Positions 2,494 through 34,388 of a DNA stretch of 64,000 nucleotides are shown one piece after another. The stretch lies in NCBI GenBank assembly GCA_048976805.1, contig JBHGUR010000035.1, positions 5,069 through 69,068 of the forward strand, written 5' to 3'. The notes beneath the pieces were generated by a model, which saw nothing but the letters and a program-made list of their open reading frames with translations, was not told the origin of the DNA and searched no databases. Each line of letters starts with the position of its first letter. Positions within the stretch are counted from its first letter, which is position 1. The stretch comes from Ectobacillus sp. (lineage in GTDB: Bacteria; Bacillota; Bacilli; Bacillales; Bacillaceae_G). A program made the translations under genes and the position numbers.

Positions 2494-2640
2494 TTATTTG
2501 CTTTTTTGATCTTTAATCACTTCAGCATTAGATTTTTTAGGTGCAAAGTAGCCATTGTCATCGATAGAAACAGCATGCCGGTCATAATTGCCATCAGCGT
2601 GCTTTTTCTTTATCATATGGGGATTTTGATTATTGCCCAT
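2494..2640 (-). CDS. small hydrophilic protein, 48 aa (MGNNQNPHMIKKKHADGNYDRHAVSIDDNGYFAPKKSNAEVIKDQKSK)
   Basis: Read manually. GGAGGTG RBS lies just upstream of the ATG; below the ORF-track cutoff. Confidence 0.6.
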   Translation of the reverse strand: MGNNQNPHMIKKKHADGNYDRHAVSIDDNGYFAPKKSNAEVIKDQKSK

Positions 2641-2943
2641 GTAATATCACCTCCAGCACATATAGTATGCGCTTAGCTTCAAATATCTTTTCAAACTAAG
2701 CGTTTACAAAAGGTGGAAAATAACAGCAGAAAATGCACTGACATATATTGCATAAATGCCTTAGTAAAAATAAACCAAATCTATATAAAGGGGATATAGA
2801 CATGCGAATTGCTTCTTTCGCTTAGAAAAGCTTTTTCAACGAACCCGGCCGATCATCCATTTCCCGTTACTATGGCAGAACCAGCAGTTTTAGAATGAAA
2901 AACAGCCATCTTTCGTTGCGAGTGAGAAAGATGGCTGTTTCGT

Positions 2944-3522
2944 TTATTCAGATTGATTGGTCATGCCCGCAGATAAAATAAATTTCATTGCGTCTTCCGG
3001 CTTGATATCAAGCACCTCAATATCGCTTTTTGGAACAAGAAACGTTATGCCCGCCACCTGAAACGTCTGCGGAATAAACACAGCGACATACTCCTGCAGC
3101 GGTTCATATAGCGTATGCAACTCTTCCGATGTCACAAATCCAAGGCTCTTCATGCTCGTTCCGGGAATAGTTACAAGCACGACTTTAGAAAATGAACGTT
3201 TTTCTCCCAACAAAGATTGTAAAATATCCTGGATGGAGGTATACAGTGTTTTTACAAGAGGAACCTTGCGAAACAGCCGGTCTATTATCCTCAAAATTCC
3301 GTTTATCATATAATGCTTTGATAGCCAGCCGAGAAAAGTCAAAAACACGATGGTGACCAAGATTCCAATTCCGGGTACATACGCTTCTCCAACATAGCTT
3401 TTAATAGCATTCCCTAAAAGTCCATCTAAAAATGTAAATACAGTAAATAAAACATATACGATAAGCAAAATAGGAACGATTGTTAAAATCCCATTTAGAA
3501 AATGTTTTAGCCAATGCTTCAT
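2944..3522 (-). CDS. DUF502 family membrane protein
   Basis: Two N-terminal TM helices, IPLVKTLY-like segment and C-terminal AMKFILSAG pattern; GGAGGCGG RBS. Confidence 0.8.
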   Translation of the reverse strand: MKHWLKHFLNGILTIVPILLIVYVLFTVFTFLDGLLGNAIKSYVGEAYVPGIGILVTIVFLTFLGWLSKHYMINGILRIIDRLFRKVPLVKTLYTSIQDILQSLLGEKRSFSKVVLVTIPGTSMKSLGFVTSEELHTLYEPLQEYVAVFIPQTFQVAGITFLVPKSDIEVLDIKPEDAMKFILSAGMTNQSE

Positions 3523-3919
3523 AAAGACTACCGCCTCCCTCTATAAAATAACAATCCGTCTTATATATACTATCATATGGACTGGAGAGGTCAGTGCGTA
3601 AAAAGAAAGATTGCAGCTAATTAGATTTAAATGGAAAGTGAAAACAATTCAAAAGGAAGTACTTTGAATGTTTGCAAACAATAAATAAGTCTATAAATGC
3701 ATAGGAGGCTGGCTTGTTTTTGGTTATTAAACTCGTGAAAAATGATACAATTGAGGTATAATATAATGTGGTGAATAAATATAGCCTCTTCAATTTATAT
3801 TTTTATCAGTATTATATAATGCAAAAGGACTTTTATAATTATTCTAAAAAAGTTGAAGAAGCTATTTATTTCACGTGCCTTATTTTATGAAGATTCAAGA
3901 TTGAAAGCGAGTGTTTAGT

Positions 3920-4639
3920 ATGGGTCGTAAATGGAACAACATTAAGGACAAAAAAGCGTCAAAAGACGCAAATACAAGCCGTATATACGCAAAGTTCGGA
4001 CGCAAGATTTATGTAGCGGCAAAGCAAGGAGATCCTGATCCGGAAGCAAACCAAGCTTTAAAATTTGTCCTTGAGCGCGCCAAAACATACAGTGTACCAA
4101 AAACGATTATTGACCGTGCGATTGAAAAAGCGAAAGGCAGTGCAGACGAAAACTATGATGAGCTTCGCTACGAAGGCTTTGGGCCGAACGGGGCAGCGGT
4201 AATTATAGATGCATTAACAAACAACGTGAATCGTACTGCAGCAGAGGTCCGGGCTGCATTTAATAAAAACGGCGGAAACATGGGAGTAAGCGGATCTGTC
4301 TCTTATATGTTTGATGCAACAGCTGTTATTGGCATTGAAGGCAAAACAGCAGATGAAGCGCTTGAAATATTAATGGAAGCCGATGTAGATGCGCGTGATA
4401 TTGTAGAAGAGGATGAAGCGGTTATTGTATATGCTGAACCTGACCAATTCCATGCTATACAAGAAGCGTTCAAGAATGCTGGCATCACTGAATTTACAGT
4501 TGCGGAGCTAACGATGCTTGCGCAAAATGAAGTGACACTTCCAGAAGATGCCAAATTGCAATTCGAAAAACTGATTGATGCATTGGAAGATTTAGAAGAT
4601 GTCCAACAAGTGTACCATAATGTGGACTTAGGGGAATAA
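3920..4639 (+). CDS. YebC/PmpR family protein
   Basis: MGRKWNNIK start, YEGFGPNG and terminal DVQQVYHN motifs. Confidence 0.92.
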
Positions 4640-4694
4640 ATGGACGAAGGCAGGCCGTTTGTTACATAACAAACGGCCTGTTGTTTTTATTCAA

Positions 4695-4880
4695 TCAACA
4701 CTTATAATCATTGTTTACAGCAACACTTAAATGTTCCCAGCGTTTAATGAATCGATTTAGCTCTTGTTCTCCTTTTTCGGTTAATGGGCAGTATTTGCGT
4801 TTAGGACCTGCTGTTGACTTTCTTAAAGCGGCACTAACTAATTTATCCTTTTGCTGCTGTACTAAATAGGGTATATAAAC
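4695..4880 (-). pseudogene. PadR-family regulator remnant (C-terminal half)
   Basis: Translation YIPYLVQQQKDKLV..GPKRKYCPLTEKGEQEL..RWEHLSVAVN resembles the PadR wing and C-helix; no N-terminus or RBS. Confidence 0.6.
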
Positions 4881-4917
4881 CATATATTTGTACAAAAACA
4901 GGAGAGGAAAAAATAAA

Positions 4918-7260
4918 ATGAGCGAGTATCGTATAATCGGCAAAAGCATTCCAAGAAAAGAAGGATGGGATAAAGTAACAGGGAGAGCAAAATATATTGA
5001 TGACCAAAATGAAGCAGGTACGCTGCATGCAAAGCTAGTGACAAGCCCAAATGCGCATGCTTATATAGAACAAATTGATATTAGCGAAGCACGGAAAATA
5101 GCAGGTGTACAAGCTATCGTGACAGGGCTGGATTTTCCGCAGCTTGTTGGTTCCAGTATTGTTGACCGGCCGCCGCTTGCTTTTGAAAAAGTTCGCTATT
5201 TTGGCGAACCGGTTGCCATTGTGATTGCGGATACGGAAGCGATTGCGAGAAAAGCGGCTTTTTCTGTTCGCGTAACGTACCGGGAACTTCCTGTCGTACA
5301 TACCCCTTTACAGGCATATCAACCAAATGCTCCTCTCATCCATGAGAAACTCGGAGAATACAAAATCATTGAGGAAGCTAGACCGGAGCCAGGAACAAAC
5401 ATTGCCAACCGGACAAAAATCAGAAAAGGTAATATTCAAGCGGGGTTTGCTAAAAGCGATGTGATTGTCGACGAATATTTCTCTTTTCCTCAATCTCTTC
5501 ATGCAGCGCTTGAAACAAGATGTGCAGAAGTTGAAATTCGGCCGAGCGGAGAGGTGATTGTGTATTCAACCTCTCAGGCACCTTTTGAAATTCGAGAACA
5601 GCTTAGCGAAGTTTTCCAGATAGATGAATCCAATATAGCCGTCCATGTACCGTTAGTAGGGGGAGCTTATGGCGGAAAAACACATGTCCAGCTAGAAATT
5701 TTGGCATATCTCGCTTCTAGGGCTACAGGCGGCAGACGGGTAAAACTGCGCTGCAGCCGGGAAGAGGATTCCGCGACAGCGCCTGTGCATATCGGCTTGC
5801 AAGCAAGAGTCCGGCTCGGTTGTACACAAGGTGGCAAGCTACAAGCAGCAGAGCTGTTGTATTTATTTGATGGCGGCGCCTATGGGGAACGGGCTGTCGT
5901 TGTCAGTAAAGCGGCCGGATTGGATTGTACCGGACCGTACGCTATTGAACATGTTTCATGCGACTCGCTTTGTATGTATACAAACCATCCGTACGCCACA
6001 GCCTTTCGGGGGTTTGGGCATTGTGAGTATACGTTTGCCGTGGAACGAACTATTGATATATTAGCAAAACGGCTGAATATGTGCCCGCTTGAATTTCGGC
6101 TGAAAAATGCAATTCGGCCCGGGGATACAACGCCGACGCAAGTGCCGGTTACAAGAAGCAATACAGGCGATGCCGCACAATGTTTAATAAAATTAAAGGA
6201 GCTCATTCACTGGGAAGAAGGAGAGCGCATTCCTGTTTCTGGCCGTAAAGTAAGAGCAAAAGGAATTGCGTTTGCTTGGAAAAATTCGACAACACCCCAA
6301 AATGCTGGAGCCGGTGCTGTTTTAACATTTGCAAAAGACGGAACAGTTTCCATTAATTGCGGTGCGGTCGAAATTGGGCAGGGTACAAAAACAGTATTAA
6401 CACAAATAGCGGCAGAGATTCTTCAAATGAAAATAGACGATATTCACATTAAGATGGAGGTGAACACCGAGACGGCGCCCAAACACTGGAAAACAGCGGC
6501 GAGCCGTACGACGTATCTTGTAGGAAATGCTGTTGTTGCAGCGGCAGAAGAGGCGTTGAGGCAGCTAAAGGAGCGGGCATCAGAGCTGCTTGGCATTCCG
6601 GAAGAAGATTTAGAGGTTGCAGATAAAAGAGTGTACAAAAAAAGCCAAAAAGAGACCGGAGTTGATTTTAGCGAAATTGTACACGGCTACGTAGCTGAAG
6701 ATGGAACGGCAATCGGTCCGCAAGTTATCGGAACGGGCGCTTATATGCTAGAAGGATTAACAGAAAATGACCCTGAGACTGGCAAGGGCAGGCATGGACC
6801 GGAATGGGGCATCATTGCCCAAGCAGTAGAGGTAGAGTTTGATATGAGAGACTGCACATACGAACTTATCCGGGCTGTGAGTGTAGCAGATGCCGGCAAG
6901 ATTTTAAATGAGAAGGGCGCAAAAGGGCAGGTAATGGGCGCGATGAGTATGGGACTAAGCTTTGCATCGCGGGAAGGGCACCAATACGACGAAAAGAGCC
7001 GCATCTTAAACACACAATTTCGTTCCTATAAGGTCACCCATTATGGACAACATCCAGAATATGTTGTCGATTTCATTGAAGTTCCCCATGATGGGTCCGC
7101 CTTTAAGTCACGCGCTCTCGGCGAACATGGCATCCTCGGCATGCCTGCCGCTCTAGCCAATAGCCTTTCAACGGCGGCAAACACTTCGCTGCATCATTTG
7201 CCGATTACGCCGGAATTAATTTGGAAAACAAGGCTCCAACAGGAAGGAGCTTCACTATGA
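4918..7260 (+). CDS. xanthine dehydrogenase-family molybdopterin-binding large subunit
   Basis: KVTGRAKY, GGAYGGK, TAFRGFG, EIGQG and GEHG motifs. Confidence 0.9.
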   Translation: MSEYRIIGKSIPRKEGWDKVTGRAKYIDDQNEAGTLHAKLVTSPNAHAYIEQIDISEARKIAGVQAIVTGLDFPQLVGSSIVDRPPLAFEKVRYFGEPVAIVIADTEAIARKAAFSVRVTYRELPVVHTPLQAYQPNAPLIHEKLGEYKIIEEARPEPGTNIANRTKIRKGNIQAGFAKSDVIVDEYFSFPQSLHAALETRCAEVEIRPSGEVIVYSTSQAPFEIREQLSEVFQIDESNIAVHVPLVGGAYGGKTHVQLEILAYLASRATGGRRVKLRCSREEDSATAPVHIGLQARVRLGCTQGGKLQAAELLYLFDGGAYGERAVVVSKAAGLDCTGPYAIEHVSCDSLCMYTNHPYATAFRGFGHCEYTFAVERTIDILAKRLNMCPLEFRLKNAIRPGDTTPTQVPVTRSNTGDAAQCLIKLKELIHWEEGERIPVSGRKVRAKGIAFAWKNSTTPQNAGAGAVLTFAKDGTVSINCGAVEIGQGTKTVLTQIAAEILQMKIDDIHIKMEVNTETAPKHWKTAASRTTYLVGNAVVAAAEEALRQLKERASELLGIPEEDLEVADKRVYKKSQKETGVDFSEIVHGYVAEDGTAIGPQVIGTGAYMLEGLTENDPETGKGRHGPEWGIIAQAVEVEFDMRDCTYELIRAVSVADAGKILNEKGAKGQVMGAMSMGLSFASREGHQYDEKSRILNTQFRSYKVTHYGQHPEYVVDFIEVPHDGSAFKSRALGEHGILGMPAALANSLSTAANTSLHHLPITPELIWKTRLQQEGASL

Positions 7261-8096
7261 TTCCATTCGATTTTGAGTATTATCGCCCAGCTTCTATTGA
7301 AGAAGCAGTCCAACTTTTTAGCAAATTATATAAAGAAGGGAAAAAGCCGCTGTACTACAGCGGGGGCACGGAAATTATTACATATGCTCGGCTGAATCTT
7401 GTTTCTACAGAAGCTGTCATCGATATTAAATATATCCCTGCCTGTCATACGTACGGATCTCAGCAAGGTTTTTTGATTCTCGGTGCTGCTCTTACTTTAA
7501 CACAAATATCCGATATGAACGCATTTCCGCTACTAAGCACTACAGCCTCCCGCATAGCCGATCATACAGCGCGAAATAAAATTACATTAGGGGGGAATAT
7601 TGCTGGAGACATTCCGTATCGTGAAGCTGTTCTGCCCTTTTTATTGACAAATAGTACCTTCGTCATCGCCGGAATGGGCGGAATTCGTTACGTTCCTGCC
7701 AAGAAAGCATTTCAGGGACAACTGCAGCTATATCCCGGGGAATTTCTCGTGCAAATTGCTACGCCTGCCGAATATGCGAATGCTCCTTTTTATAGCGTAA
7801 AGAAACGGAAAAACGAAGAAATTGACTACCCTCTCATTACGCTTGCTGCGATCAAGACCGATTTTAATATTCGAACTGCTTATAGCGGATTATGTGAATT
7901 TCCATTTTGTTCAGAGAAAATGGATAGGCAATTGAATAACAAGAATATTCCAAGAGAGCAAAGAATTGAGCGGGCTGTTGCTTCTATCCCTAATTCTGTG
8001 CGCAATGATATTCGCGGTTCTCGGGAATACCGTTTGTTTGTATTGCGGAATATGCTGCAAGATGCTTTAACAGAGCTAGAAGGGGTGGAGGTATGA
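7257..8096 (+). CDS. xanthine dehydrogenase-family FAD-binding subunit
   Basis: FEYYRPASIEEA, SGGTE, RNKITLGGN motifs; ATGA overlap with the upstream gene. Confidence 0.9.
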   Translation: MIPFDFEYYRPASIEEAVQLFSKLYKEGKKPLYYSGGTEIITYARLNLVSTEAVIDIKYIPACHTYGSQQGFLILGAALTLTQISDMNAFPLLSTTASRIADHTARNKITLGGNIAGDIPYREAVLPFLLTNSTFVIAGMGGIRYVPAKKAFQGQLQLYPGEFLVQIATPAEYANAPFYSVKKRKNEEIDYPLITLAAIKTDFNIRTAYSGLCEFPFCSEKMDRQLNNKNIPREQRIERAVASIPNSVRNDIRGSREYRLFVLRNMLQDALTELEGVEV

Positions 8097-23536: not shown

Positions 23537-24088
23537 TTGAAGAAAAAGTTTAACAGTTCAATCTTAATATTGCTGCTTACTTTTACAATGGCAGCCTGTT
23601 CTAATACTAAAGAAGGAAATTCTGCTTCAACATCAGGAGAAAAAACCGGTAATTCGACTGTGGTTGCAAGTAACATGGATGAAATAGATTTATATGGTGA
23701 AGTATCTGAAATAATCGGCAATGAAGTTACATTGAGATTAATAGAAAAGCCTGAAAAACCTGCAAGGAATGGAGAGAATGATGGAAATGGCGGCGGCCGA
23801 GGAGGTGCAGGTGGCCGCGGTGGCGATGGTGCCAGCGGAGGTGGTGGTGCTATGAGAGAAAGAAAATATACAGGTGAAGAGAAAACCTTTGTCATCCCTG
23901 TAGGTGCCCCACTGGTGACAGTTACACGCGGGGAAAGCGGCATGGAAGAAAGCAAAATAAGCTTGAATGAAGTAACTCCGGGTAGCATCTTATCTGTCTA
24001 CTATGAGGAAGATGGGAAAACAATCGAAGAGATCAGAGTCCAAAAACCAAGAACAGGAGGTGGGCAAGGTGGCAGAGGCGGTAATTAA
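23537..24088 (+). CDS. Gly-rich lipoprotein, unknown function
   Basis: TTG start after AGGAG; lipobox MAAC; poly-Gly/Arg tracts. Confidence 0.75.
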   Translation: MKKKFNSSILILLLTFTMAACSNTKEGNSASTSGEKTGNSTVVASNMDEIDLYGEVSEIIGNEVTLRLIEKPEKPARNGENDGNGGGRGGAGGRGGDGASGGGGAMRERKYTGEEKTFVIPVGAPLVTVTRGESGMEESKISLNEVTPGSILSVYYEEDGKTIEEIRVQKPRTGGGQGGRGGN

Positions 24089-24089
24089 A

Positions 24090-24773
24090 ATGAAGGATGT
24101 TTATAAGTCATATGGCATCGGAGAACATAAAGTAAATGTCCTGAATGGTGTTTCTATTTCGGTTAACGCAGGTGAATTTGTAGCCATTCTGGGACCATCC
24201 GGATCCGGCAAAACCACATTGATGAACCTCATTGGGCTGATTGATACGATCGATCGCGGAGATTATTTTCTTGATGGACTCAATATTGTAGATCAGTCTG
24301 AACAAAAGTACGCTAGAATCAGGAATGAGAAAATCGGATTCGTCTTCCAAAAGTTTAACCTTATTTCTAAATATACCGCGTTGTACAACGTCGCCCTGCC
24401 CCTTCTTCTTAGAGGAGAAAGTTATAAGGATGCCAGGGAAAAAGCAGCAAAAACACTTGAAAGAGTAGGCCTGGGAGACCGGATAAACCATCGGCCCAAT
24501 CAGCTTTCAGGAGGACAGCAGCAACGCGTGGCCATCGCGCGTGCCCTGGTCGGGGATTGCCCTTTGATCCTTGCCGATGAACCAACAGGTGCTCTAGACC
24601 AGAAAACAGGAGGGGAGGTCCTCTCTTTTTTCCAGGAACTGAACCATGAAGGGAAAACCATCGTCATGATTACCCACGATGAAAATATTGCAGCAAAAGC
24701 GAAACGGGTAATCCGGGTGGAGGATGGTTCAATCCGTGAGAAGAACATGCAATTGGGCAATGCGCTATCATAA
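24090..24773 (+). CDS. ABC transporter ATP-binding protein (LolD/MacB type)
   Basis: GPSGSGKT, LSGGQQQRVAIARAL, ADEPTG motifs. Confidence 0.95.
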   Translation: MKDVYKSYGIGEHKVNVLNGVSISVNAGEFVAILGPSGSGKTTLMNLIGLIDTIDRGDYFLDGLNIVDQSEQKYARIRNEKIGFVFQKFNLISKYTALYNVALPLLLRGESYKDAREKAAKTLERVGLGDRINHRPNQLSGGQQQRVAIARALVGDCPLILADEPTGALDQKTGGEVLSFFQELNHEGKTIVMITHDENIAAKAKRVIRVEDGSIREKNMQLGNALS

Positions 24774-24878
24774 TAACTCTCTTTACATCATGGCCGGACT
24801 TATAAACAGTCCGGCCCAAAAATTCTATTAATTTCTAAAATGTAGAGCTGATGACATATGAAGGGAAGGTAATTATCA

Positions 24879-25275
24879 ATGTTGCGAATAAAGAAAGCCG
24901 GGCGTTTTTTTATCGTGTTTTTGATATTTGCTACATTTGCCGGAGGAAGGTACATATATTCATCTGGAAAACAAATAGAAAAGAACGATCCTGAACCGGA
25001 AATTACTTTGACAAGTGAAACTAAATTATCCAACACGATGATAAAAGATCCCAATCCATCCCCTGAAGAACCTGATAAAGTGTTGATTGAAGGTGTTCCT
25101 CATATTCAACAATTCCCTGAATTGCCGCGAGGATGCGAAGTTACCAGTTTGGCTATGATTATGCAATATGCAGGTGTTTCTATCGATAAAATGACTCTTG
25201 CAGAAGAGGTTGCAACAGTTCCTTTTCTTGATCAAAACGGAGTGCGGGAGTGCGAGGGAATCCAAATGACGGGTT
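24879..25275 (+). pseudogene. C39-like peptidase (YvpB-like), frameshifted and truncated
   Basis: LPRGCEVTSLAM motif. An 8-bp tandem duplication GGAGTGCG (25239-25254) shifts the frame before RGNPNDGF, and similarity then ends. Confidence 0.75.
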
Positions 25276-25654
25276 TGAGTACCTTTCCAGCAGTGTGGCG
25301 GGATTGGCAACAATTGAACAGGGCATCATCCGTCTATATATGATTGGTAAGACAAACAGACTGTTGACAAATCTGCAGAATCTAAACGCTTTAAGACAGC
25401 ACCTACCCTGGGCAAAAAATTTGAGCAGTACGAGATTCCTCTACATGCCAATCCAGCTAACGAAGACAATAATAAAGGAAGCAAGATAATGCCAAGGTAG
25501 GCACTCAAATTGTGAAAGTTGTAGTTGATATGGCAGCTCTTTTTATCGGTTTAATAAATAGCATTACTGCTGCTTTATCTTTTTTCGCTACATAGATAGG
25601 CGTTTGCTGCCAATGCCTTCACCAATCTAATTTGTTCTGAACGAAATATGTACT

Positions 25655-26218
25655 TTAAATTGGCCATATATCATGGAACCGTTCTTTAGCATAGCCAGCA
25701 ATCACCCATACAAGTAAAGCGTCTTTGCGCTTTGCACCAGAATCGCGCATTTGTAAAACCAGATGTTCAATGCGGATTACTTGAATTGGTTTAGAAAAAT
25801 GCTCGTTGATAAAAGCTTGCTGGTCTCTCTCGTCTGAAAGAAAATAGGGAATTCCCATCGTATGAGCATAGGCAATAGAGACAATTTCACCCCAATGACT
25901 TCCGTTTTCACGAGTGCCTTTTTCTCTTCGAAGTTTCTCAATGGTGTCTTCGTAGAGTATATAATGGAGTGAGCTTTGTTGTTGAAGAGCAGCAGTCGTA
26001 ACAATCTCGGCTCGACCTTTTTGGATCAGCACATCTATTTGCTCTTTTGCTTCCCTTGGTGTTAGAACTTCGTGATTGTATACATACTCATGAATCAGCA
26101 GCAGTCCTACATAGTGGGGTAAAATATCCTCAATAACTCTATATTTCCTTAGTCTCCCTAGCTTAATTGCAAAATCAGCATCCAAAATGGCGGTTTCCCA
26201 TATATAAGATTCAGTCAT
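25655..26218 (-). CDS. PIN-domain protein (DUF3368/VapC-like), putative toxin
   Basis: ILDAD after beta1, HEVL, GEIVSIAYA, FLSDERD acidic motifs; start overlaps the upstream stop. Confidence 0.65.
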   Translation of the reverse strand: MTESYIWETAILDADFAIKLGRLRKYRVIEDILPHYVGLLLIHEYVYNHEVLTPREAKEQIDVLIQKGRAEIVTTAALQQQSSLHYILYEDTIEKLRREKGTRENGSHWGEIVSIAYAHTMGIPYFLSDERDQQAFINEHFSKPIQVIRIEHLVLQMRDSGAKRKDALLVWVIAGYAKERFHDIWPI

Positions 26219-27029
26219 GTTCTTCCTCCAACAGCCGGTCAATTTCTTCTTCTGTCGACAGACTGTCCGGTGTAACGATGCCAAAGTCTTCGGGTTTTCG
26301 GTGCACGAGTCCAAGAAGATTTTGTAGGTGTTTAGGAGAAATTTGCCCGTGCTTATATAAGGAAAGGGCATGTTCCACTAATCCCTCATAGTGAACCAAC
26401 GGTTGTGCCTCTGCAGGCTCATCCAACTGGAGTGTTTTACGAATCAATGAGATATTTGAAATTTCCCATAACTGTTTTGCCGCATCCTTGTCAATGTAGC
26501 CAATTTCAAACAAGCGACGAACCATAGACTTGTAAGGGACTTGAAAAATGGTTGCTAACTCTACAACGTGGAAACTCGAGATAGTCCCAGAAGGAGCCGC
26601 AAGAAAGAGAAGCTCTTGCTCCAATACGTGCTTTGGCACAAGAAACATCGCAGCAAACAAATTTGCACGGAGTTCTCGTGTATTGTCTGTCTCATCCTCC
26701 AAGGTATCATTTCTTAGTAACTCGGGATGATTCAGATATTCTTTATCGAACCAAATGTGGTACAGCTCATGCGCTGCTGCAAAATATTGCTTCTCTTTTG
26801 GGATTTGGCTGTTGATGTAAACAAAAAGACGATTCTTCTTATGGCACACGAATGCGCACAGATTTTCATCTTGAAAAGGCGCTTGTAAAAGAGTAGCCTC
26901 TCTCTTTACAATTCTAAGTACATCTTTGCCAAGAATGCGAGAAGACTTATGCAGCTCGCTTAGCTTACTATTGGCTTTTGCCTCAATGTCCTGCATTTCT
27001 GTTCCAGAGAGAAGCGGAAGGAAGGTCAT
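26211..27029 (-). CDS. ImmA/IrrE-family Zn metallopeptidase
   Basis: FAAAHELYH (HExxH), ELRANLFAAMFLVP, FQVPYKSMVRRL motifs. Confidence 0.9.
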   Translation of the reverse strand: MTFLPLLSGTEMQDIEAKANSKLSELHKSSRILGKDVLRIVKREATLLQAPFQDENLCAFVCHKKNRLFVYINSQIPKEKQYFAAAHELYHIWFDKEYLNHPELLRNDTLEDETDNTRELRANLFAAMFLVPKHVLEQELLFLAAPSGTISSFHVVELATIFQVPYKSMVRRLFEIGYIDKDAAKQLWEISNISLIRKTLQLDEPAEAQPLVHYEGLVEHALSLYKHGQISPKHLQNLLGLVHRKPEDFGIVTPDSLSTEEEIDRLLEEEHD

Positions 27030-27391
27030 AATCGCTCCTCCTTTAACTTTTCAGACAATTCCTCTAACTCAATAAGTTGCTCCATAACAAAGTCTAAGTA
27101 TTGTAGATGCTGCCGAATGTCTGGATTGTCTGTGCTCTCCATCATAAAGAGGATGGGATCTTCAATGACAGTCGCCTTTGGAACACGCTGAATGAGATCA
27201 TCAACTTTCGTATTCATGATTTCAGCAATCCTTTGAATTTCTCCGATATTTGTTGCTTTCTTGCCGTTCACAATTTTGCTCATGACCTGCTTGGATACAC
27301 CTAAGCGCTCAGCAAATTCAACTTGACTCATATTATGGGCTTTAAGAAATTGTGCGATTTTGTCTCCAATCTCTTCAAAGATTGTTTTCAT
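27026..27391 (-). CDS. XRE-family HTH regulator
   Basis: MSQVEFAERLGVSKQVMSKIVNGK; AAGGAGG RBS; ATGA overlap with the peptidase gene. Confidence 0.9.
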   Translation of the reverse strand: MKTIFEEIGDKIAQFLKAHNMSQVEFAERLGVSKQVMSKIVNGKKATNIGEIQRIAEIMNTKVDDLIQRVPKATVIEDPILFMMESTDNPDIRQHLQYLDFVMEQLIELEELSEKLKEERL

Positions 27392-27412
27392 GTAAAACGC
27401 CTCCTTGTATTC

Positions 27413-27442
27413 AGTGTACGGTAATTCCTTTGATTGTGTCAA
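27413..27442 (-). promoter_or_regulatory. sigma-A-like promoter for the XRE-peptidase-PIN operon
   Basis: TTGACA-N18-TACACT immediately upstream of the RBS. Confidence 0.5.
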
Positions 27443-27512
27443 CAAATCGTGTACGATAAAGTTTGTATAAGTAAATAAATTATTGTCGAAAGGATATGTT
27501 TATATAATATAA

Positions 27513-27600
27513 ATAAAATCTCTTAGCAGCAAGGCAGAAGAGGCATTAGCGGACAACGATAAAGAAAGTAGTATCAAGAAATGGCAAGATATGTTTGGCC
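27513..27600 (+). pseudogene. putative CD-NTase (CBASS cyclase) C-terminal remnant
   Basis: IKSLSSKAEEALADNDKESSIKKWQDMFG resembles the terminal A..A...KW..(I/M)FG helices of CD-NTases; short, and recognised from memory. Confidence 0.5.
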
Positions 27601-28225
27601 CTTGCTGCTGGAATTGGTGCTGCAGAGATCGCAGATTTGTATTCACAGCAAACAAAAAGGATATTTGGTAAGAAGCGCGCTCTGTTTGGTATACGAAAAT
27701 CCAAGTACTCAAACGAACCCTTACAGCAGTTTCTTTTCGAAAAATTCGGGGGAAAGAGAATTACTGAGTCAAATGTCATGCTGTGCATCCCATCTATTGA
27801 GCATAGCAAAGCCGAACCAAAAGTATATAAGACACCGCACCATAAAGAATATATTATTGATGGTCAGAGGTATATGGGGGAGGCTGCTTTAGCCACTTCC
27901 GCAGCTCCAACTTTCTTTCCACCTGCAATGGTTGGCTAAGATCGATGGCGGACTGTGGGCAAACAATCCTGTCCTAGTAGGGATTGCAGAAGCAATTAAA
28001 CTAGGTTATCTGCTCTATCAGATTGAAGTGTTGTCCTTAGGAACAGGTGAACCAGTTTATTTTAATAAAAAAGGGCATCCGTTAGCAGGCGGCTTAATGC
28101 AATGGATGAACAATCTAATTGATCTTGCTTTTCAATCACAATCAAAAGGGTCGTTGACTTCGCTTGACGCTGCAAGGTCTGATCTTGTGCGGCATATGGT
28201 ATATGACATATATATAGCATGGCTT
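27595..28225 (+). pseudogene. patatin-like phospholipase (CapV-like), N-terminus deleted and frameshifted
   Basis: LALAAGIGAAEIADLY, SKYSNEPL, ATSAAPTFFP, then DGGLWANNP and VLSLGTG in another frame; the GxSxG nucleophile is missing. Confidence 0.8.
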
Positions 28226-28844
28226 GGACGCGTTCCAACAGCAAAATTCAGCTATTTCACAATCTTTTCGTTATGGTCAACTTTTATATCAACACCACCA
28301 CATGGGAGAGGGGAGAACCCGCGTCACTGCTGCTCCTTATTTAGGAAAAATCTAGTTAACATAATATATATTATACTAAGTTGTTTAGGGATAAAAAAAT
28401 ATGTATCAATAGTAAAGTTAACTTTGTTTTTTGAGATGGTTTGGGGATTTCAAGGTGCAATGATATATTATTTAGATTAAGACTTCTGAATAATAAATCG
28501 TCTACAAACTCATTTACAAAAAAAATCATTCAAAGCCGCATCATCACAGCTTGTTAACGACCTCGTTTTCATCCGAATCTCTAAAAATATATCGATAAAA
28601 TATATTTATGATAAAACCCCGTGTTTTTTTGCATTTTTATCATTTTTAATTATATTAGAATATCAATATACCCAATCAATAGGTACATCAAAAAACCGCA
28701 ACATATACGTTGCGGTCATCCTTTTTCCCCATATATCGCTCCTTTCTTTTTCTCTTTTATATATAAAGGATCCACACTAATCCTTAGCTGCTCCGCGATA
28801 ACCAACCCTTCCCTCCTTTTTTACGAATATATGCAAGATCGCCT

Positions 28845-29540
28845 CTAAGCGCAAGGCTCCGCTCTTGGAAGCGGGAATAACTGATCACCTGGACCTAAAA
28901 AGCGCCATGCATTCGGAGATGTCCAAACGGCTGCTTCGAATGGCCTCATCTTCAACAGCCTCATATTCCCCCTATTGAGATTTGCTTTTGGTGTACGGGA
29001 GTTATGCACAATTGCTGTGTGCCCCAGCACATTGTTTCTTACTTCAGGGTATCGAACAATCTTTCGGCTCCCTTGTTTTTCTGCTTGTCCTGCTGTTTTT
29101 GGAACAATGAACAAGGTATACTCAACCGCTTTCATTTTTTCTATCTTTTTGCGTCTCGCCTTTCTTCTGCCAGCTGCGGTCTCTTTTTCTTTTTGGACTA
29201 ACACATACTCATAGCCATATACTGTTTCTCTTTTAGCAATAAAAATCGAATTTGTAATTTTATATTCCTGTTCTTCAGTTGTTGCAGGGAATCTTAGCTT
29301 ATATTGAACTACATTTGCCCCCGCCTGTTTAGTTGTATAGTTGAGTCGAAGGATAGAGCTTTCATGCACAAAATGGAAGTCATACAGTTTTCCTTGTTCA
29401 TCTAATTGAATGCATAAGGTTAAGCCTTTTCTCCCTTTCTTTCGGGGTAAAATTGCCCTTTGCCGATTTTTTTTGATTCCGGAAAAGTTGACTAAGATGC
29501 AATTATGGCCTTCAATCGATGACAACTCCGCAAATCTCAT
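28845..29540 (-). CDS. hypothetical basic protein
   Basis: 231-codon ORF with GGAAGGGG RBS; no motif recognised. Confidence 0.6.
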   Translation of the reverse strand: MRFAELSSIEGHNCILVNFSGIKKNRQRAILPRKKGRKGLTLCIQLDEQGKLYDFHFVHESSILRLNYTTKQAGANVVQYKLRFPATTEEQEYKITNSIFIAKRETVYGYEYVLVQKEKETAAGRRKARRKKIEKMKAVEYTLFIVPKTAGQAEKQGSRKIVRYPEVRNNVLGHTAIVHNSRTPKANLNRGNMRLLKMRPFEAAVWTSPNAWRFLGPGDQLFPLPRAEPCA

Positions 29541-29812
29541 GCTATCCCCTTCCTTCCAAAGAAACTTTCAGGTAAATTTTACCTATGACAACAATTTCTA
29601 TTTGTTATACGTCTTTCCCTACTTTTCCCTCTAGCTTTTTATCGTCAACTTTGTATAAATAATGCGATTTATTTTCTTATATCGAATATTTTTGAGAAAA
29701 TTCACTAGCAAAAAACGTTGGTTGCCGTTATAATTTGTTAATTAAAAATAAACAAAAAAGCTGACCTAAAAGGTTCTAAACCTGATAAGTCAGCTTTCCT
29801 GTAGAATGTTAT

Positions 29813-30451
29813 TTAAGATTCTAATGAGGATAAAGCATCCATATTGCTCGCAATCATGGCAATAATCGTGCTTGCTTCTTCTTTGCTGAAAATAAAATTC
29901 GATTCATCTTCAATCACTTCATCATCTGCCGCCATAATGCGGTTTACCCGGCGCAAAATGCCATCGCCTGTCTCCTCGACAATTCCAAATTGATAAGTAA
30001 TTTCGACCTCATCTCCTTGCGCATACGCTGTCACTTTAGGAGTTGTCCATTCAACGTCGATTTCTTCATACACATCATCTTCTTCAAAGCATTCATGCTC
30101 TTCATCATCGCTTATGTCATACACATCTTCATCATCGTCCTCATTTATATAGCTGTGAAAGCTTTCGTGAACTGCATCCACAATATCTTCAATATCGGTA
30201 AAAATCGTTCTGGAAGTTTGGTCAAAATCTAAGTCAATCGATTCTATGTAAAATTCTCCATTGTACGGATCGAAAAACAAGGTACAAAAATATTCTCGAA
30301 TGTTATCGTCCGTTTCAATGAAAAATTCGATTCGTGGATGCTTTGCTCCTCTATCAATCGACATATGGCCAACTTGATCATATTTTTCACAAATGGATTC
30401 TAGATGGTCTTGCAGCTCTCCTGTTACACGATCAAACCATTCTAATAACAT
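29813..30451 (-). CDS. highly acidic hypothetical protein
   Basis: ORF; ATG at 30451 after AAGGAAGGG; D/E-rich linker. Confidence 0.7.
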   Translation of the reverse strand: MLLEWFDRVTGELQDHLESICEKYDQVGHMSIDRGAKHPRIEFFIETDDNIREYFCTLFFDPYNGEFYIESIDLDFDQTSRTIFTDIEDIVDAVHESFHSYINEDDDEDVYDISDDEEHECFEEDDVYEEIDVEWTTPKVTAYAQGDEVEITYQFGIVEETGDGILRRVNRIMAADDEVIEDESNFIFSKEEASTIIAMIASNMDALSSLES

Positions 30452-30608
30452 ACAGGTATCCCTTCCTTTCAAGGTTGTCGCCTTTATTATTTCCAACTGC
30501 ACCATTTTGAGCCACCAAATATAGCAAGAGCATATGCAATAATCTAGGAAAGCTCACCTGCATTTGCATATAATACTCTATCCGTTTTTAATACAAAGGA
30601 GTGTATCG

Positions 30609-31682
30609 ATGGAACAACAGCAATTTATTAATAGCATTGCACCTTATGCTGTAAAAGCGATGCAGCAGCATAATATTCTGGCATCCTTGACAATCGCGCA
30701 AACTATTTTAGAAAGCGGCTGGGGAAAGTCAGAGCTTGCGGTAAAAGGGAACAATCTATTCGGGATAAAAGGGGTTGGGCCGGCAGGAAGCATTACAATT
30801 GAAACGACGGAACACCATGAAAACGGAACGCCGTATCGAACGAGTGCCGAGTTTCGGAAGTATCACTCCCGTGAAGAAAGCTTGGAGGATCATACAAGAC
30901 ATCTGCTGCAATCGCCAAGATACCAAAGCATTATTGGCGAGAAGGATTATAAACGGGCAAGCGAAAAAATACAAGCGGCCGGGTATACAAACGACCCGAA
31001 TTATCCTAGTCTTTTAATTGGCATTATCGAACGGCATCGTTTATATGAATATGATAACCAAACTATAGTGCCTGCACCTGCCCCGTTAAAAGAAACCGGA
31101 GTAGTAACGATCATAGCAGAAACATTGAATCTAAGGAGCGGCCCCGGCATGAATTATCCTGTTTTGCGGACGCTCCCGAAAGGATCGCAATGGAAGGTGT
31201 TTGGAGAAGCGGTGAACGGCTTTTATAATCTTGGAGGCGACCAATGGTGTTCTGCCAATCCCGTTTACGTTTCCTTCACCCCTTCCTCGCGCCCTGCCCA
31301 GGCGGCTACGAGCATAACAGGTGAAATCAAACTGCTGGTTGATTTGAATTTGCGCAGCGGCCCTGGCATGCAGTATAAAGTAATCCGAGTCATGAAAAAA
31401 GGAGAATCTTACAAAGTATTCGGAAATGCAGTTAACGGATGGTATAATCTTGGCGGTCAACAATGGTGTTCGGCTAATCCCTCCTATGTTTCTTATACTC
31501 CGTATCATTTCATAAAGGTAACTGCGGATGTGTTAAATGTACGAAACGGCCCCGGGACCCAATATGCAGTCATAAAACAAATTAAGCGCAATGAAACGTA
31601 TAGAACCTACGGCTACCAAAATGGATGGTACAACATAGGGAACGACCAATGGGTTTCCGGCGGCTATGTAACAACTATTTAA
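30609..31682 (+). CDS. GH73 glucosaminidase/muramidase with three SH3b domains
   Basis: AQTILESGWG, NNLFGIKG, GYTNDPNY; three LN(L/V)R.GPG..Y repeats. Confidence 0.88.
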   Translation: MEQQQFINSIAPYAVKAMQQHNILASLTIAQTILESGWGKSELAVKGNNLFGIKGVGPAGSITIETTEHHENGTPYRTSAEFRKYHSREESLEDHTRHLLQSPRYQSIIGEKDYKRASEKIQAAGYTNDPNYPSLLIGIIERHRLYEYDNQTIVPAPAPLKETGVVTIIAETLNLRSGPGMNYPVLRTLPKGSQWKVFGEAVNGFYNLGGDQWCSANPVYVSFTPSSRPAQAATSITGEIKLLVDLNLRSGPGMQYKVIRVMKKGESYKVFGNAVNGWYNLGGQQWCSANPSYVSYTPYHFIKVTADVLNVRNGPGTQYAVIKQIKRNETYRTYGYQNGWYNIGNDQWVSGGYVTTI

Positions 31683-31749
31683 GTTGCCGAAAAGCATAGC
31701 AAAGTTGGTCGCAAAGGCATTTCTTTGCGACCAACTAAATCGTTTATTA

Positions 31750-32214
31750 TCACTTTAAAATTGATAAATCTTGGGATAATCGAATCATATCCCTGCACTG
31801 TATGCCGTTTTCAAAAATTTCTTCAGAGTAGTGCCTAATGAAAAAATCCCTATCAATGCCAGTTATTCTAAAACCGCATTTTTGATAAAGGGCTAATTGT
31901 CCTATGCTTGAATTTCCAGTACCAATTTCTATTGTTTTAAATCTCCTTAACCTAGCTGTATGAATAGCATCCATCACCAATTGTTTCCCAATGCCTTTAC
32001 CGTGCAGGGTTTCTATAACAGAAACATTTACCAATTCAACAGTTTCAGGCCTTGTTGGAAGCAAAACGTAAACACCAATAGTTTTATTATCCTTTTCGGC
32101 TACAAAGCATTCGCCTCTTTGTATATACTCCTCAATAAACAACGGCGAAGGATCAGCTAATAACAACAATTCCATTGGAGGTTTTTCATTCACATTTAGT
32201 TTTCGAATATTCAT
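31750..32214 (-). CDS. GNAT acetyltransferase
   Basis: HGKGIGKQL and LYQKCGF motifs. Confidence 0.9.
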   Translation of the reverse strand: MNIRKLNVNEKPPMELLLLADPSPLFIEEYIQRGECFVAEKDNKTIGVYVLLPTRPETVELVNVSVIETLHGKGIGKQLVMDAIHTARLRRFKTIEIGTGNSSIGQLALYQKCGFRITGIDRDFFIRHYSEEIFENGIQCRDMIRLSQDLSILK

Positions 32215-32261: not shown

Positions 32262-34388
32262 TTACATACATAACTGACGTTGCCTTACTAATGCAGCTTT
32301 AATCATAAAATAGGTAATTTCAGGCGGAAGCTCATCTTTGATGGGCTTTAATTTCTCTGTGCCTGTACGTAATGCTGCTTCCTGAATAAGCGCCTCCTGC
32401 TCCGGTGTCAAAATATCCTCCCACGACACCGGCAGCCCTTCCTCCAAACATTGCACAATATGATTTTCAATCGTGATGCGGGATAATTGGCGCAAAGCGG
32501 CAATCTCTTGCAGGCTATTTCCTTGTTGGTACATCTCATATGTCACCAAATGCGATGGCTGTTTTGCTGCTTTCTCTTTTGGCGGTTCCTGCACGTTTAT
32601 AGCCGGAGTGTAGGATGGATTGCTTTCCAAATACTCCGCGATGGCATGCAACAAGCGTGCTCCATATCGTTCTTGCTTTGCCGCGCCAATTCCTTTTACG
32701 CCAAGCAGCTCTTCTTTTGTTCGCGGCAGCTTCGCACACAAATCGTGCAGCGTCTCGTCCGATACGATAACAAACGGCGGAACCTGTTCCTTGGCGGCGA
32801 TTTCTTTGCGCACTTGGCGCAAGGCTGTAAACAGCGCATCATCCGATACAACGCGTGTTGCCGCCATCGCTTCTTTGCGCATCACACGCTCCTTTCCAAT
32901 CAGCACTTCCCGCCCCTGGTTTGTCACATACAGCACTGGATATTGCCCGCCGGCTGTTCCTGCGTATTGCTCCGAAACGAGAAAATCAATAAAATCAGTA
33001 ATCTCCTTTGCGCTTTTATGCTTCAACAGTCCGTAGGTGGACAGCTTATCGAGCCGCATCTCCCGCAGCTTTTTATTCAGCGACCCGGCCAGCACTTGGC
33101 TGATCATCGTCTTGCCGAACCGCTCACCCGCACGGATGATGCACGACAGCACCATTTGCGCCTCCGTCGTCACGTCAACTTCCTCCCTTTGGTCGGTGCA
33201 ATTGCCGCAGCGGCCGCACGGACCAGCGGACTCTTCGCCAAAATACTGCAGGATAAACGACTGCAAGCATCCTTCTGTATAGCAGTAATTCTTCACTTGA
33301 AGAAGCTTGTAAAGCTCCTGGTTTTTTAACGTCTCATCTGCAGCTGACTGTTCTATTAGATAGCGCTGCAGTTGAATATCCTGTGCCGCGTAACATAAAA
33401 TACATTCGCTGCTTAATCCATCACGCCCAGCTCTGCCGGCTTCTTGATAGTAGCTTTCCATATTTTTTGGCAATTGGTAATGAATCACAAAGCGCACATT
33501 GCTTTTATTGATCCCCATTCCAAAGGCATTCGTCGCTACCATCACGGTCATATCGTCCTGCAAAAAAAGATCCTGTTGCCGCGCCCGTTCGCTATCGCTC
33601 ATGCCTGCATGGTATTTGGCCGCAGCAATGCCCTGTTTTTCCAAATGTTCCTGCAATTGATCGACATCTTTTCGGGTGGCTGCATATACAATGCCGGCTT
33701 CTCCCTTGTTTTGTTTTACATACTGTGTCATATATGCCAGCCGGTCCTGCCCCTTTACGACTTTAAAGGATAAGTTCGGCCGCGCAAATCCCGTCACAAT
33801 CGTGTTGTGCATCGGGATGCCAAGCAAAAAACAAATATCTTCCTTCACCTGGGGCGTTGCCGTTGCGGTTAACGCCAGGATCACCGGGCTTTTGGGAATG
33901 TGCTCTATCATTTCTTTAATGCGCAAATAACTCGGGCGGAAATCATGGCCCCACTGCGAAATACAATGCGCTTCATCGACTGCCACTAATGACACAGGCA
34001 TGTCCTGCAGCAAATCCAAAAATTGTGGCGCATCCATCCGTTCTGGTGCGATATATAAAATCTTGTATATCCCTTGGCGCAAGCCTGATAAACGTTCGCG
34101 CGTTTCGGATACACTGAGCGTGCTGTTGAGGAAAGTCGCCGGAATACCGACTCGCTCCAGACTGTCCACTTGATCCTTCATGAGAGAGATAAGCGGTGAA
34201 ATAACGATGGTAATGCCAGGAAGAAGAAGCGCGGGGATTTGATAGCAGATGGATTTGCCGCCGCCAGTCGGCATAATGCCAGCCGTATGATTGCCAGCGA
34301 GGATGTTTTGAATGATTTGCTCCTGGCCGGGGCGGAAGCTGTCATAGCCAAAGTACTGCTTTAAGTATTCTTTTGCTTGAGTAAGCAT
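32262..34388 (-). CDS. recQ: ATP-dependent DNA helicase RecQ
   Basis: MPTGGGKS, DEAHCISQWGHDFRPSY, QEAGRAGRDG; Zn-binding, RQC and HRDC domains. Confidence 0.96.
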   Translation of the reverse strand: MLTQAKEYLKQYFGYDSFRPGQEQIIQNILAGNHTAGIMPTGGGKSICYQIPALLLPGITIVISPLISLMKDQVDSLERVGIPATFLNSTLSVSETRERLSGLRQGIYKILYIAPERMDAPQFLDLLQDMPVSLVAVDEAHCISQWGHDFRPSYLRIKEMIEHIPKSPVILALTATATPQVKEDICFLLGIPMHNTIVTGFARPNLSFKVVKGQDRLAYMTQYVKQNKGEAGIVYAATRKDVDQLQEHLEKQGIAAAKYHAGMSDSERARQQDLFLQDDMTVMVATNAFGMGINKSNVRFVIHYQLPKNMESYYQEAGRAGRDGLSSECILCYAAQDIQLQRYLIEQSAADETLKNQELYKLLQVKNYCYTEGCLQSFILQYFGEESAGPCGRCGNCTDQREEVDVTTEAQMVLSCIIRAGERFGKTMISQVLAGSLNKKLREMRLDKLSTYGLLKHKSAKEITDFIDFLVSEQYAGTAGGQYPVLYVTNQGREVLIGKERVMRKEAMAATRVVSDDALFTALRQVRKEIAAKEQVPPFVIVSDETLHDLCAKLPRTKEELLGVKGIGAAKQERYGARLLHAIAEYLESNPSYTPAINVQEPPKEKAAKQPSHLVTYEMYQQGNSLQEIAALRQLSRITIENHIVQCLEEGLPVSWEDILTPEQEALIQEAALRTGTEKLKPIKDELPPEITYFMIKAALVRQRQLCM

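Follow-up and report, generated by a model that had tools for sequence, protein, structure and literature searches.

A decayed CBASS operon was recognized in the plus strand of a 64,000-nt stretch of Ectobacillus sp. DNA (GCA_048976805.1, contig JBHGUR010000035.1), referred to here as the window. The locus spans ~640 bases (27513–28153) and, with a probability that we put at roughly 90%, is what remains of a pseudogenized, no longer functional E2-type ("type II short") CBASS with the ancestral order CD-NTase, E2-like Cap2, CapV. It is an ordinary decayed CBASS gene cluster, neither functional nor a new type of system, and the operon was probably acquired by a horizontal route into a variable region of the Ectobacillus chromosome. 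An earlier note on this DNA had proposed a decayed CBASS in which a cyclase piece adjoins a patatin piece, a proposal borne out by PADLOC, NF041079, tblastn, and the intact operons of relatives. The features on which the assignment is built are the following.

27513–27599, plus strand: internal CD-NTase fragment of 29 codons, corresponding to residues 261–289 of a 336-aa Bacillus cyclase
27589–27599, plus strand: deletion junction of 11 nt (ATATGTTTGGC), from codon comparison with four intact operons
27589–27936, plus strand: CapV fragment A, residues 66–181 of 322, 57% identity (tblastn) to the Bacillus CapV P0001
27934–27940, plus strand: frameshift site, with 1 nt between the G181 and K186 codons where relatives carry 3–4 codons
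27938–28153, plus strand: CapV fragment B, residues 186–257, 67% identity (tblastn) to P0001
28154–28345, no strand assigned: DNA past the CapV 3′ break, with the last ~65 CapV codons absent in every frame
25649–27495, minus strand: XRE, M78 (ImmA-IrrE) peptidase, and third gene, the PADLOC candidate PDC-M69, not part of the CBASS (PADLOC and DNA match to E. funiculus)

E2-CBASS is the type II short architecture, comprised of a CD-NTase, a single E2-like Cap2, and an effector, described in two reports (bioRxiv 10.1101/2022.05.25.493364; mLife 2026, PMC12948482). The two remnants are ordered and oriented as in the cyclase, PF26395 E2-CBASS gene, patatin layout of the nearest intact relatives; the difference is that here the E2 gene is wholly absent, 29 of ~336 cyclase codons are left, and the operon cannot function. 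The same reports (bioRxiv 10.1101/2022.05.25.493364; PMC12948482) describe E2-CBASS cyclases as mostly long, clade-G enzymes; the cyclases of the relatives used here are 335–347 aa long. In the window, the CapV pieces follow directly on the cyclase scrap on the same strand, as remnants only. The nucleotidyltransferase core of a functional CD-NTase (SMODS / GS...DxD) is gone, with only residues 261–289 left, and no E2-like Cap2 gene lies between cyclase and effector. In the intact ancestor, the cyclase would sense infection and make a cyclic oligonucleotide, which for CapV effectors is typically 3′3′-cGAMP. The nucleotide would activate CapV, leading to degradation of membrane phospholipid and killing of the infected cell, and the E2 protein would regulate the cyclase via covalent attachment to the cyclase C-terminus.

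Translation of 27513–27599 in one frame gives the peptide IKSLSSKAEEALADNDKESSIKKWQDMFG, with a TAA stop directly upstream and no start codon. In a tblastn search of the whole window, residues 261–289 of the Bacillus cyclase (VQKLKENCQDAMDEKNKEDSIEKWQDIFG) aligned to this peptide without gaps (12/29 identical, E 2e-4). Comparison of the 29-mer with 5027 PADLOC models returned eight matches, all to CBASS cyclases and all at the equivalent position, the best being PDLC00798 (E 7.7e-6, positions 264–291 of 344). Across all six frames of the 3.53-Mb genome, the 29-mer was the only match to that cyclase model. An HMM built from four neighboring cyclases (Bacillus, Peribacillus tepidiphilus, Siminovitchia fordii, and a genome of genus g7 in the same family) retrieved the 29-mer at E 2.5e-7; the alignment is gap-free with all four, and the C-terminal-domain motif SI.KWQ.IFG stands at the expected site. 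Since only cyclases were matched and the match is unique in the genome, the assignment rests on more than resemblance. The earlier note had allowed that the segment might belong to a family other than CD-NTases, a concern laid to rest by PADLOC, tblastn, the HMM, and the genome scan, which matched CD-NTases only. Its description of the segment as a cyclase tail needs correcting: the scrap is an internal piece of the C-terminal domain (residues 261–289 of ~336), and an intact cyclase would continue 47 residues past it. HMM searches of window 24000–30000 found no further cyclase or E2 piece. A TATAAT box had also been placed directly before these ~29 codons. The string is present (27503–27508), but a promoter scan of 27300–28900 did not list it and found no acceptable −35 partner, and no start codon accompanies the segment; TATAAT is not supported as a promoter. 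The number of promoter-like sites in 27300–28900 equals the shuffled expectation.

The patatin sequence follows in a different frame. From 27595 (TTG GCC), frame A reads ALAAGIGAAEIADLY...ATSAAPTFFPPAMVG, with a stop at 27937–27939. With P0001 (322 aa), the best match, as query, tblastn aligned 27574–27936 to residues 61–181 at 57% identity, with true similarity beginning at residue 66 (ICL...). Fragment A thus begins five residues after the GTSTG nucleophile motif, just past GxSxG as the earlier note had it, and both GTSTG and the GGGxxG oxyanion motif are missing. The next frame opens with KIDGGLWANNP at 27938 and retains an intact DGG motif (DGGLW, 27944–27958), with the catalytic Asp codon at 27944–27946. 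The break between the fragments, earlier put near 27935, is found near 27937 and comes with the loss of ~4 codons; no homopolymer or repeat occurs at 27934–27940.

Both pieces belong to the CBASS phospholipase family. The PADLOC model PDLC00758 matches fragment A at E 1.7e-33 and fragment B at E 1.2e-17, and the top family for both is NF041079 of NCBIfam, "CBASS cGAMP-activated phospholipase" (E 2e-33, 116 bits and E 7.7e-12, 45.1 bits, respectively). The equivalog cutoff of NF041079 is 200 bits, and intact P0001 scores 268.7 bits; the fragments fall below the cutoff because the gene is truncated. An HMM of 83 full-length CapV homologues matched at positions 61–183 and 186–259 of 318, with positions 1–60 and 260–318 absent in all six frames of 27300–29000. 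P0001 residues 26–32 (GGG) and 59–63 (GTSTG) are likewise uncovered in any frame, so the Ser-Asp dyad and GGGxxG motif of an active enzyme are incomplete. The two pieces were joined into one read-through, for searching only, and compared with 5.8 billion proteins. The best matches were proteins of 315–335 aa from Bacillus, Peribacillus, Neobacillus, and others, at no more than 59% identity, which carry the source name "CBASS cGAMP-activated phospholipase". The possibility raised earlier that the closest homologues might be stand-alone lipases did not hold up, as the closest are CapV effectors inside cyclase operons. For two CapV relatives, an exact-sequence look-up gave no recorded match.

CapV is the patatin-like phospholipase that cGAMP activates in CBASS (Severin et al. 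2018, PMC6042076), and its catalytic core is a Ser-Asp dyad, S58/D192 in AbCapV (PMC12480259). The remnant resembles CapV in its best families (NF041079 / PDLC00758), in its 57–67% identity to Bacillus and Peribacillus CapV, and in the retained DGG aspartate. It differs in having neither the motif of the Ser nucleophile nor the glycine-rich oxyanion loop, in ending ~65 residues early, in its broken frame, and in the replacement of W162 by Gly. Patatin homology ends at 28153 by both tblastn and the CapV HMM, short of the 28225 given in the earlier note. Beyond that point, 28154–28850 showed no Pfam match in any ORF, no plasmid match, and no repeat within the genome.

The structure of the ancestral operon can be read from its relatives. 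In four of the four readable closest operons, namely those from the genomes that supplied the neighboring cyclases, a cyclase of 335–347 aa is followed by an E2-CBASS gene (PF26395/PDLC00858) of 131–137 aa and then by CapV; in Bacillus, the 336-aa SMODS/DncV-type cyclase gene lies two places upstream of the CapV gene encoding P0001. Intact operons with a cyclase and CapV, which the earlier note had suggested looking for, were thereby found in relatives, with an E2-like gene between the two. The ancestral operon most likely had three genes, for the cyclase, the E2-like "short" Cap2, and CapV, and the presence of an E2 gene in all four readable closest intact relatives points to a former E2 gene at this locus. 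Gene order and deletion sizes are extrapolated from relatives at 48–59% protein identity, as no intact allele was found in a close relative (>60% identity). The search for such an allele covered the DNA of 40 relatives and, with the CapV model, 104 family genomes, and returned nothing closer than ~59% protein identity.

Comparison of codons with the four intact operons placed the fusion of cyclase and CapV in the 11 nt at 27589–27599, which the two readings share in different frames. The note had the 29 codons run into patatin at TTGGCC (27595–27600); the string is there, but the frames differ, and these 11 nt are common to both. Translated in the cyclase frame, the junction gives D-M-F-G, and in that of CapV it gives I-C-L-(A); since both readings agree with the relatives, the break can be narrowed no further than these 11 nt. 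The parental sites in the relatives are themselves alike (cyclase ..GAY ATT TTT GG. vs CapV ..ATY ATT TGT CTS GG.). The overlap of the junction in both frames and this resemblance suggest a deletion between short direct repeats, which probably arose by slippage or illegitimate recombination. In the relatives, 756–774 bp separate cyclase codon ~289 from CapV codon ~66, and from their cyclase-E2-CapV order it follows that a single deletion of ~760 bp would have taken the C-terminal end of the cyclase, all of the E2 gene, and the N-terminal part of CapV.

Set against the relatives, the locus shows four lesions. The first removed the promoter and the first ~260 cyclase codons, with the break within ~20 nt of the end of the PDC-M69 cassette. 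A second, the ~760 bp deletion, fused cyclase codon ~289 to CapV codon ~66, eliminating the GGGxxG and GTSTG (Ser nucleophile) motifs. The third is a small indel at 27937 that shifts the CapV frame, and the fourth the loss of the last ~65 CapV codons. Instead of the two deletions proposed earlier, at least three truncations (cyclase 5′ end, internal ~760 bp, and CapV 3′ end) are thus counted, along with a small frameshifting indel.

The genome is a 114-contig draft, which could invite the objection that the breaks are assembly or sequencing artefacts and that the organism has an intact operon. However, the 1501 bp of window 27400–28900 are base-for-base identical in GCA_048976845.1 and in the Logan assembly of run SRR33394486, and the frameshift and junctions are therefore not errors of a single assembly. 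The missing parts (~780 + 760 + 195 bp) are far beyond indel error and are absent from the entire 99.9%-complete assembly, and the chance that an artefact explains the locus is next to nil. The two further assemblies represent the same lineage rather than independent populations, given that GCA_048976845.1 differs from the window by only two substitutions in 12.8 kb; it also has a 975-bp gap inside recQ and is a very close, non-identical genome. The gap removes exactly 975 bp (325 codons; window 32750–33724) and reflects either an in-frame deletion specific to that strain or a collapse during assembly.

In the rest of the 3.5-Mb genome, no SMODS domain and no E2 gene were detected; the E2 model gave E 1.1e-46 in a positive-control genome (G073). 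The absence of the missing operon parts from the rest of the genome indicates that they were deleted, not relocated. Among the eight other Ectobacillus genomes, none (0/8) has a SMODS domain and none contains DNA resembling the remnant, which is consistent with an operon that arrived horizontally and then decayed. In other species of the genus, the ABC transporter and RecQ flanks show no synteny.

Inactivation of the operon looks recent. The 564 surviving CapV nucleotides contain zero stop codons, where 5.2% of possible single changes would create one; with neutral divergence of 5%, the probability of finding no stop is 0.23, and with 10% it is ~0.05. Of the alignment columns covered, 55 are at least 90% conserved across the 83 homologues, and 52 of these keep the consensus residue; a conserved Trp, at P0001 position 162, has become Gly. 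It is on the lack of stops and the 52/55 retained positions that a recent date is proposed. Continued selection on the surviving CapV pieces is an unlikely alternative. Loss of the CBASS may have been neutral, or it may have been favored since an abortive-infection lipase is costly.

Gene callers place an ORF on each patatin piece, 114 and 182 aa long, and for this reason the truncated CapV peptides may be expressed. One could go further and suppose that they have been repurposed, for instance as a decoy that binds nucleotides or as a dominant-negative partner, in line with two open frames and well-kept conserved residues. Yet the fragment A ORF has a TTG start without a Shine-Dalgarno-like sequence and no promoter-like site upstream, the N-terminal third and C-terminal fifth of the fold are missing, the genome has no cyclase to synthesize a ligand, and recent inactivation explains the good conservation equally well; we regard repurposing as extremely improbable. 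For annotation, the ORFs of 114 and 182 aa are fragments of a single CapV pseudogene, the 29-codon scrap is a CD-NTase remnant, and the genome should not be scored CBASS-positive. Beyond annotation, the locus has little significance, other than as a clean, small example of how an abortive-infection system is lost, in which a single ~760 bp deletion would have taken the cyclase C-terminus, the E2 regulator, and the lipase nucleophile.

The loss sits beside an independently mobile defense candidate. Divergently upstream of the remnant, on the minus strand, lie genes for an XRE regulator, an M78 peptidase, and a third protein, which match PDC-M69A/B/C of PADLOC at E 1.9e-41, E 9.9e-100, and E 1.2e-67, respectively; a literature search for "PDC-M69" found no paper in the library covered. 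The likeliest start codon of the XRE gene is the ATG at 27391, preceded by a promoter, TTGACA-18-TACACT. In Ectobacillus funiculus JCM 11201, the cassette shows 73% nucleotide identity over window 25649–27490 and none beyond, and the conserved end (27490–27495) stops 18–23 nt from the cyclase scrap. A related-locus search with the M78 protein returned two loci, from E. funiculus and Caldifermentibacillus hisashii. In total, the complete triad was found in six other genomes (E. funiculus, C. hisashii, and four more Bacillales), none with a cyclase, E2, or CapV within ~9 kb. The XRE-upstream side in these six genomes is occupied, in order, by IS fragments and a McrBC-like pair; a NUDIX gene; an unknown ORF and a pyruvate-kinase-like ORF; type I CRISPR-Cas genes; a BlaR1/BlaI pair; and a tRNA methyltransferase. 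The check suggested earlier, for an intact CBASS beside the same XRE-peptidase-PIN genes, accordingly gave a negative result, as the triad occurs without CBASS in all six.

This arrangement is suggestive of CapH/CapP regulation because CapH/CapP pairs are found upstream of CBASS operons in divergent orientation (Lau et al., bioRxiv 10.1101/2022.04.27.489752), as is the HTH repressor and M78-type Zn peptidase pair here with respect to the remnant. If the XRE and M78 proteins were CapH and CapP, 25655–28153 would represent one former CapH/CapP-controlled CBASS of which only the regulators and a PIN-like gene survive. In PADLOC, the M78 protein does match capP (E 4.3e-13) and the XRE protein capH (E 1.6e-4), but these are weaker matches, with far better scores to PDC-M69A/B and a third gene assigned to PDC-M69C. 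The difference from CapH/CapP is that here both genes are part of a three-gene cassette whose movement is independent of CBASS: the orientation is the expected one, and co-inheritance with CBASS is lacking. The whole triad recurs in the six genomes devoid of CBASS genes nearby, its upstream neighbor in three of them is an unrelated same-strand gene (NUDIX, BlaR1, or tRNA methyltransferase), the E. funiculus DNA homology ends short of the cyclase scrap, and the XRE/M78 pair stands beside 0/4 intact relatives of this CBASS. A CapH/CapP-controlled origin is thus unlikely, and the evidence favors an autonomous cassette that merely abuts the CBASS remnant. The coincidence of the cassette end with the cyclase 5′ break suggests that arrival of the cassette, or a neighboring deletion, decapitated the cyclase. 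A fuller scenario, in which PDC-M69 arrival or recombination decapitated the cyclase, the deletion then took the signaling and killing parts at once, and the open CapV frames yield products with some remaining ligand-binding or dominant-negative function, strikes us as highly improbable; if true, the locus would be a snapshot of one defense module displacing another.

Additional elements were observed around the cassette. Operator-like motifs TGTCAACAAAnnGTnTACGA and TTGTCGAA occur upstream of the XRE gene (window 27446–27495) and are kept in the E. funiculus and C. hisashii cassettes. In E. funiculus, IS fragments (DUF772 / DDE_Tnp_1_6) lie beside the PDC-M69 copy (2584–7636 of locus L018), as does a McrBC-like pair (MrcB_N + AAA_5; DUF2357 + PDDEXK_7), another defense-island setting. 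A neighboring peptidase gene in the region of the window is also broken. This Peptidase_C39_2-like gene (window 24879–25290) matches residues 2–143 of a 273-aa frame in a relative (G008), and its frame shifts near 25247 (..VRGNPNDGF continues in an ORF from 25250), soon after which homology ends; it constitutes a second pseudogene flanking the PDC-M69 cassette.

On the far side of the remnant, an ~85-nt intergenic element (window 28350–28440) is conserved in 11 genomes of at least eight Bacillales genera. Neither this element, at E < 0.1, nor window 24000–32000, at a credible level, matched Rfam. The element contains an invariant block, CTAGTTwACATAATATATATTATAGGAAGTTG, that includes the 14-bp palindrome ATAATATATATTAT. 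Some 20 variable nucleotides past the block, a hairpin of the form GTCTCA-N25-TGAGAC with an inner AAAGTAAACTTT is found, and a T-run follows the hairpin on the minus strand. A bidirectional intrinsic terminator lies further along (window 28694–28717), ~130 nt downstream of a 231-aa minus-strand ORF, with a hairpin formed by ACCGCAAC...GTTGCGGT and T-runs on both strands.
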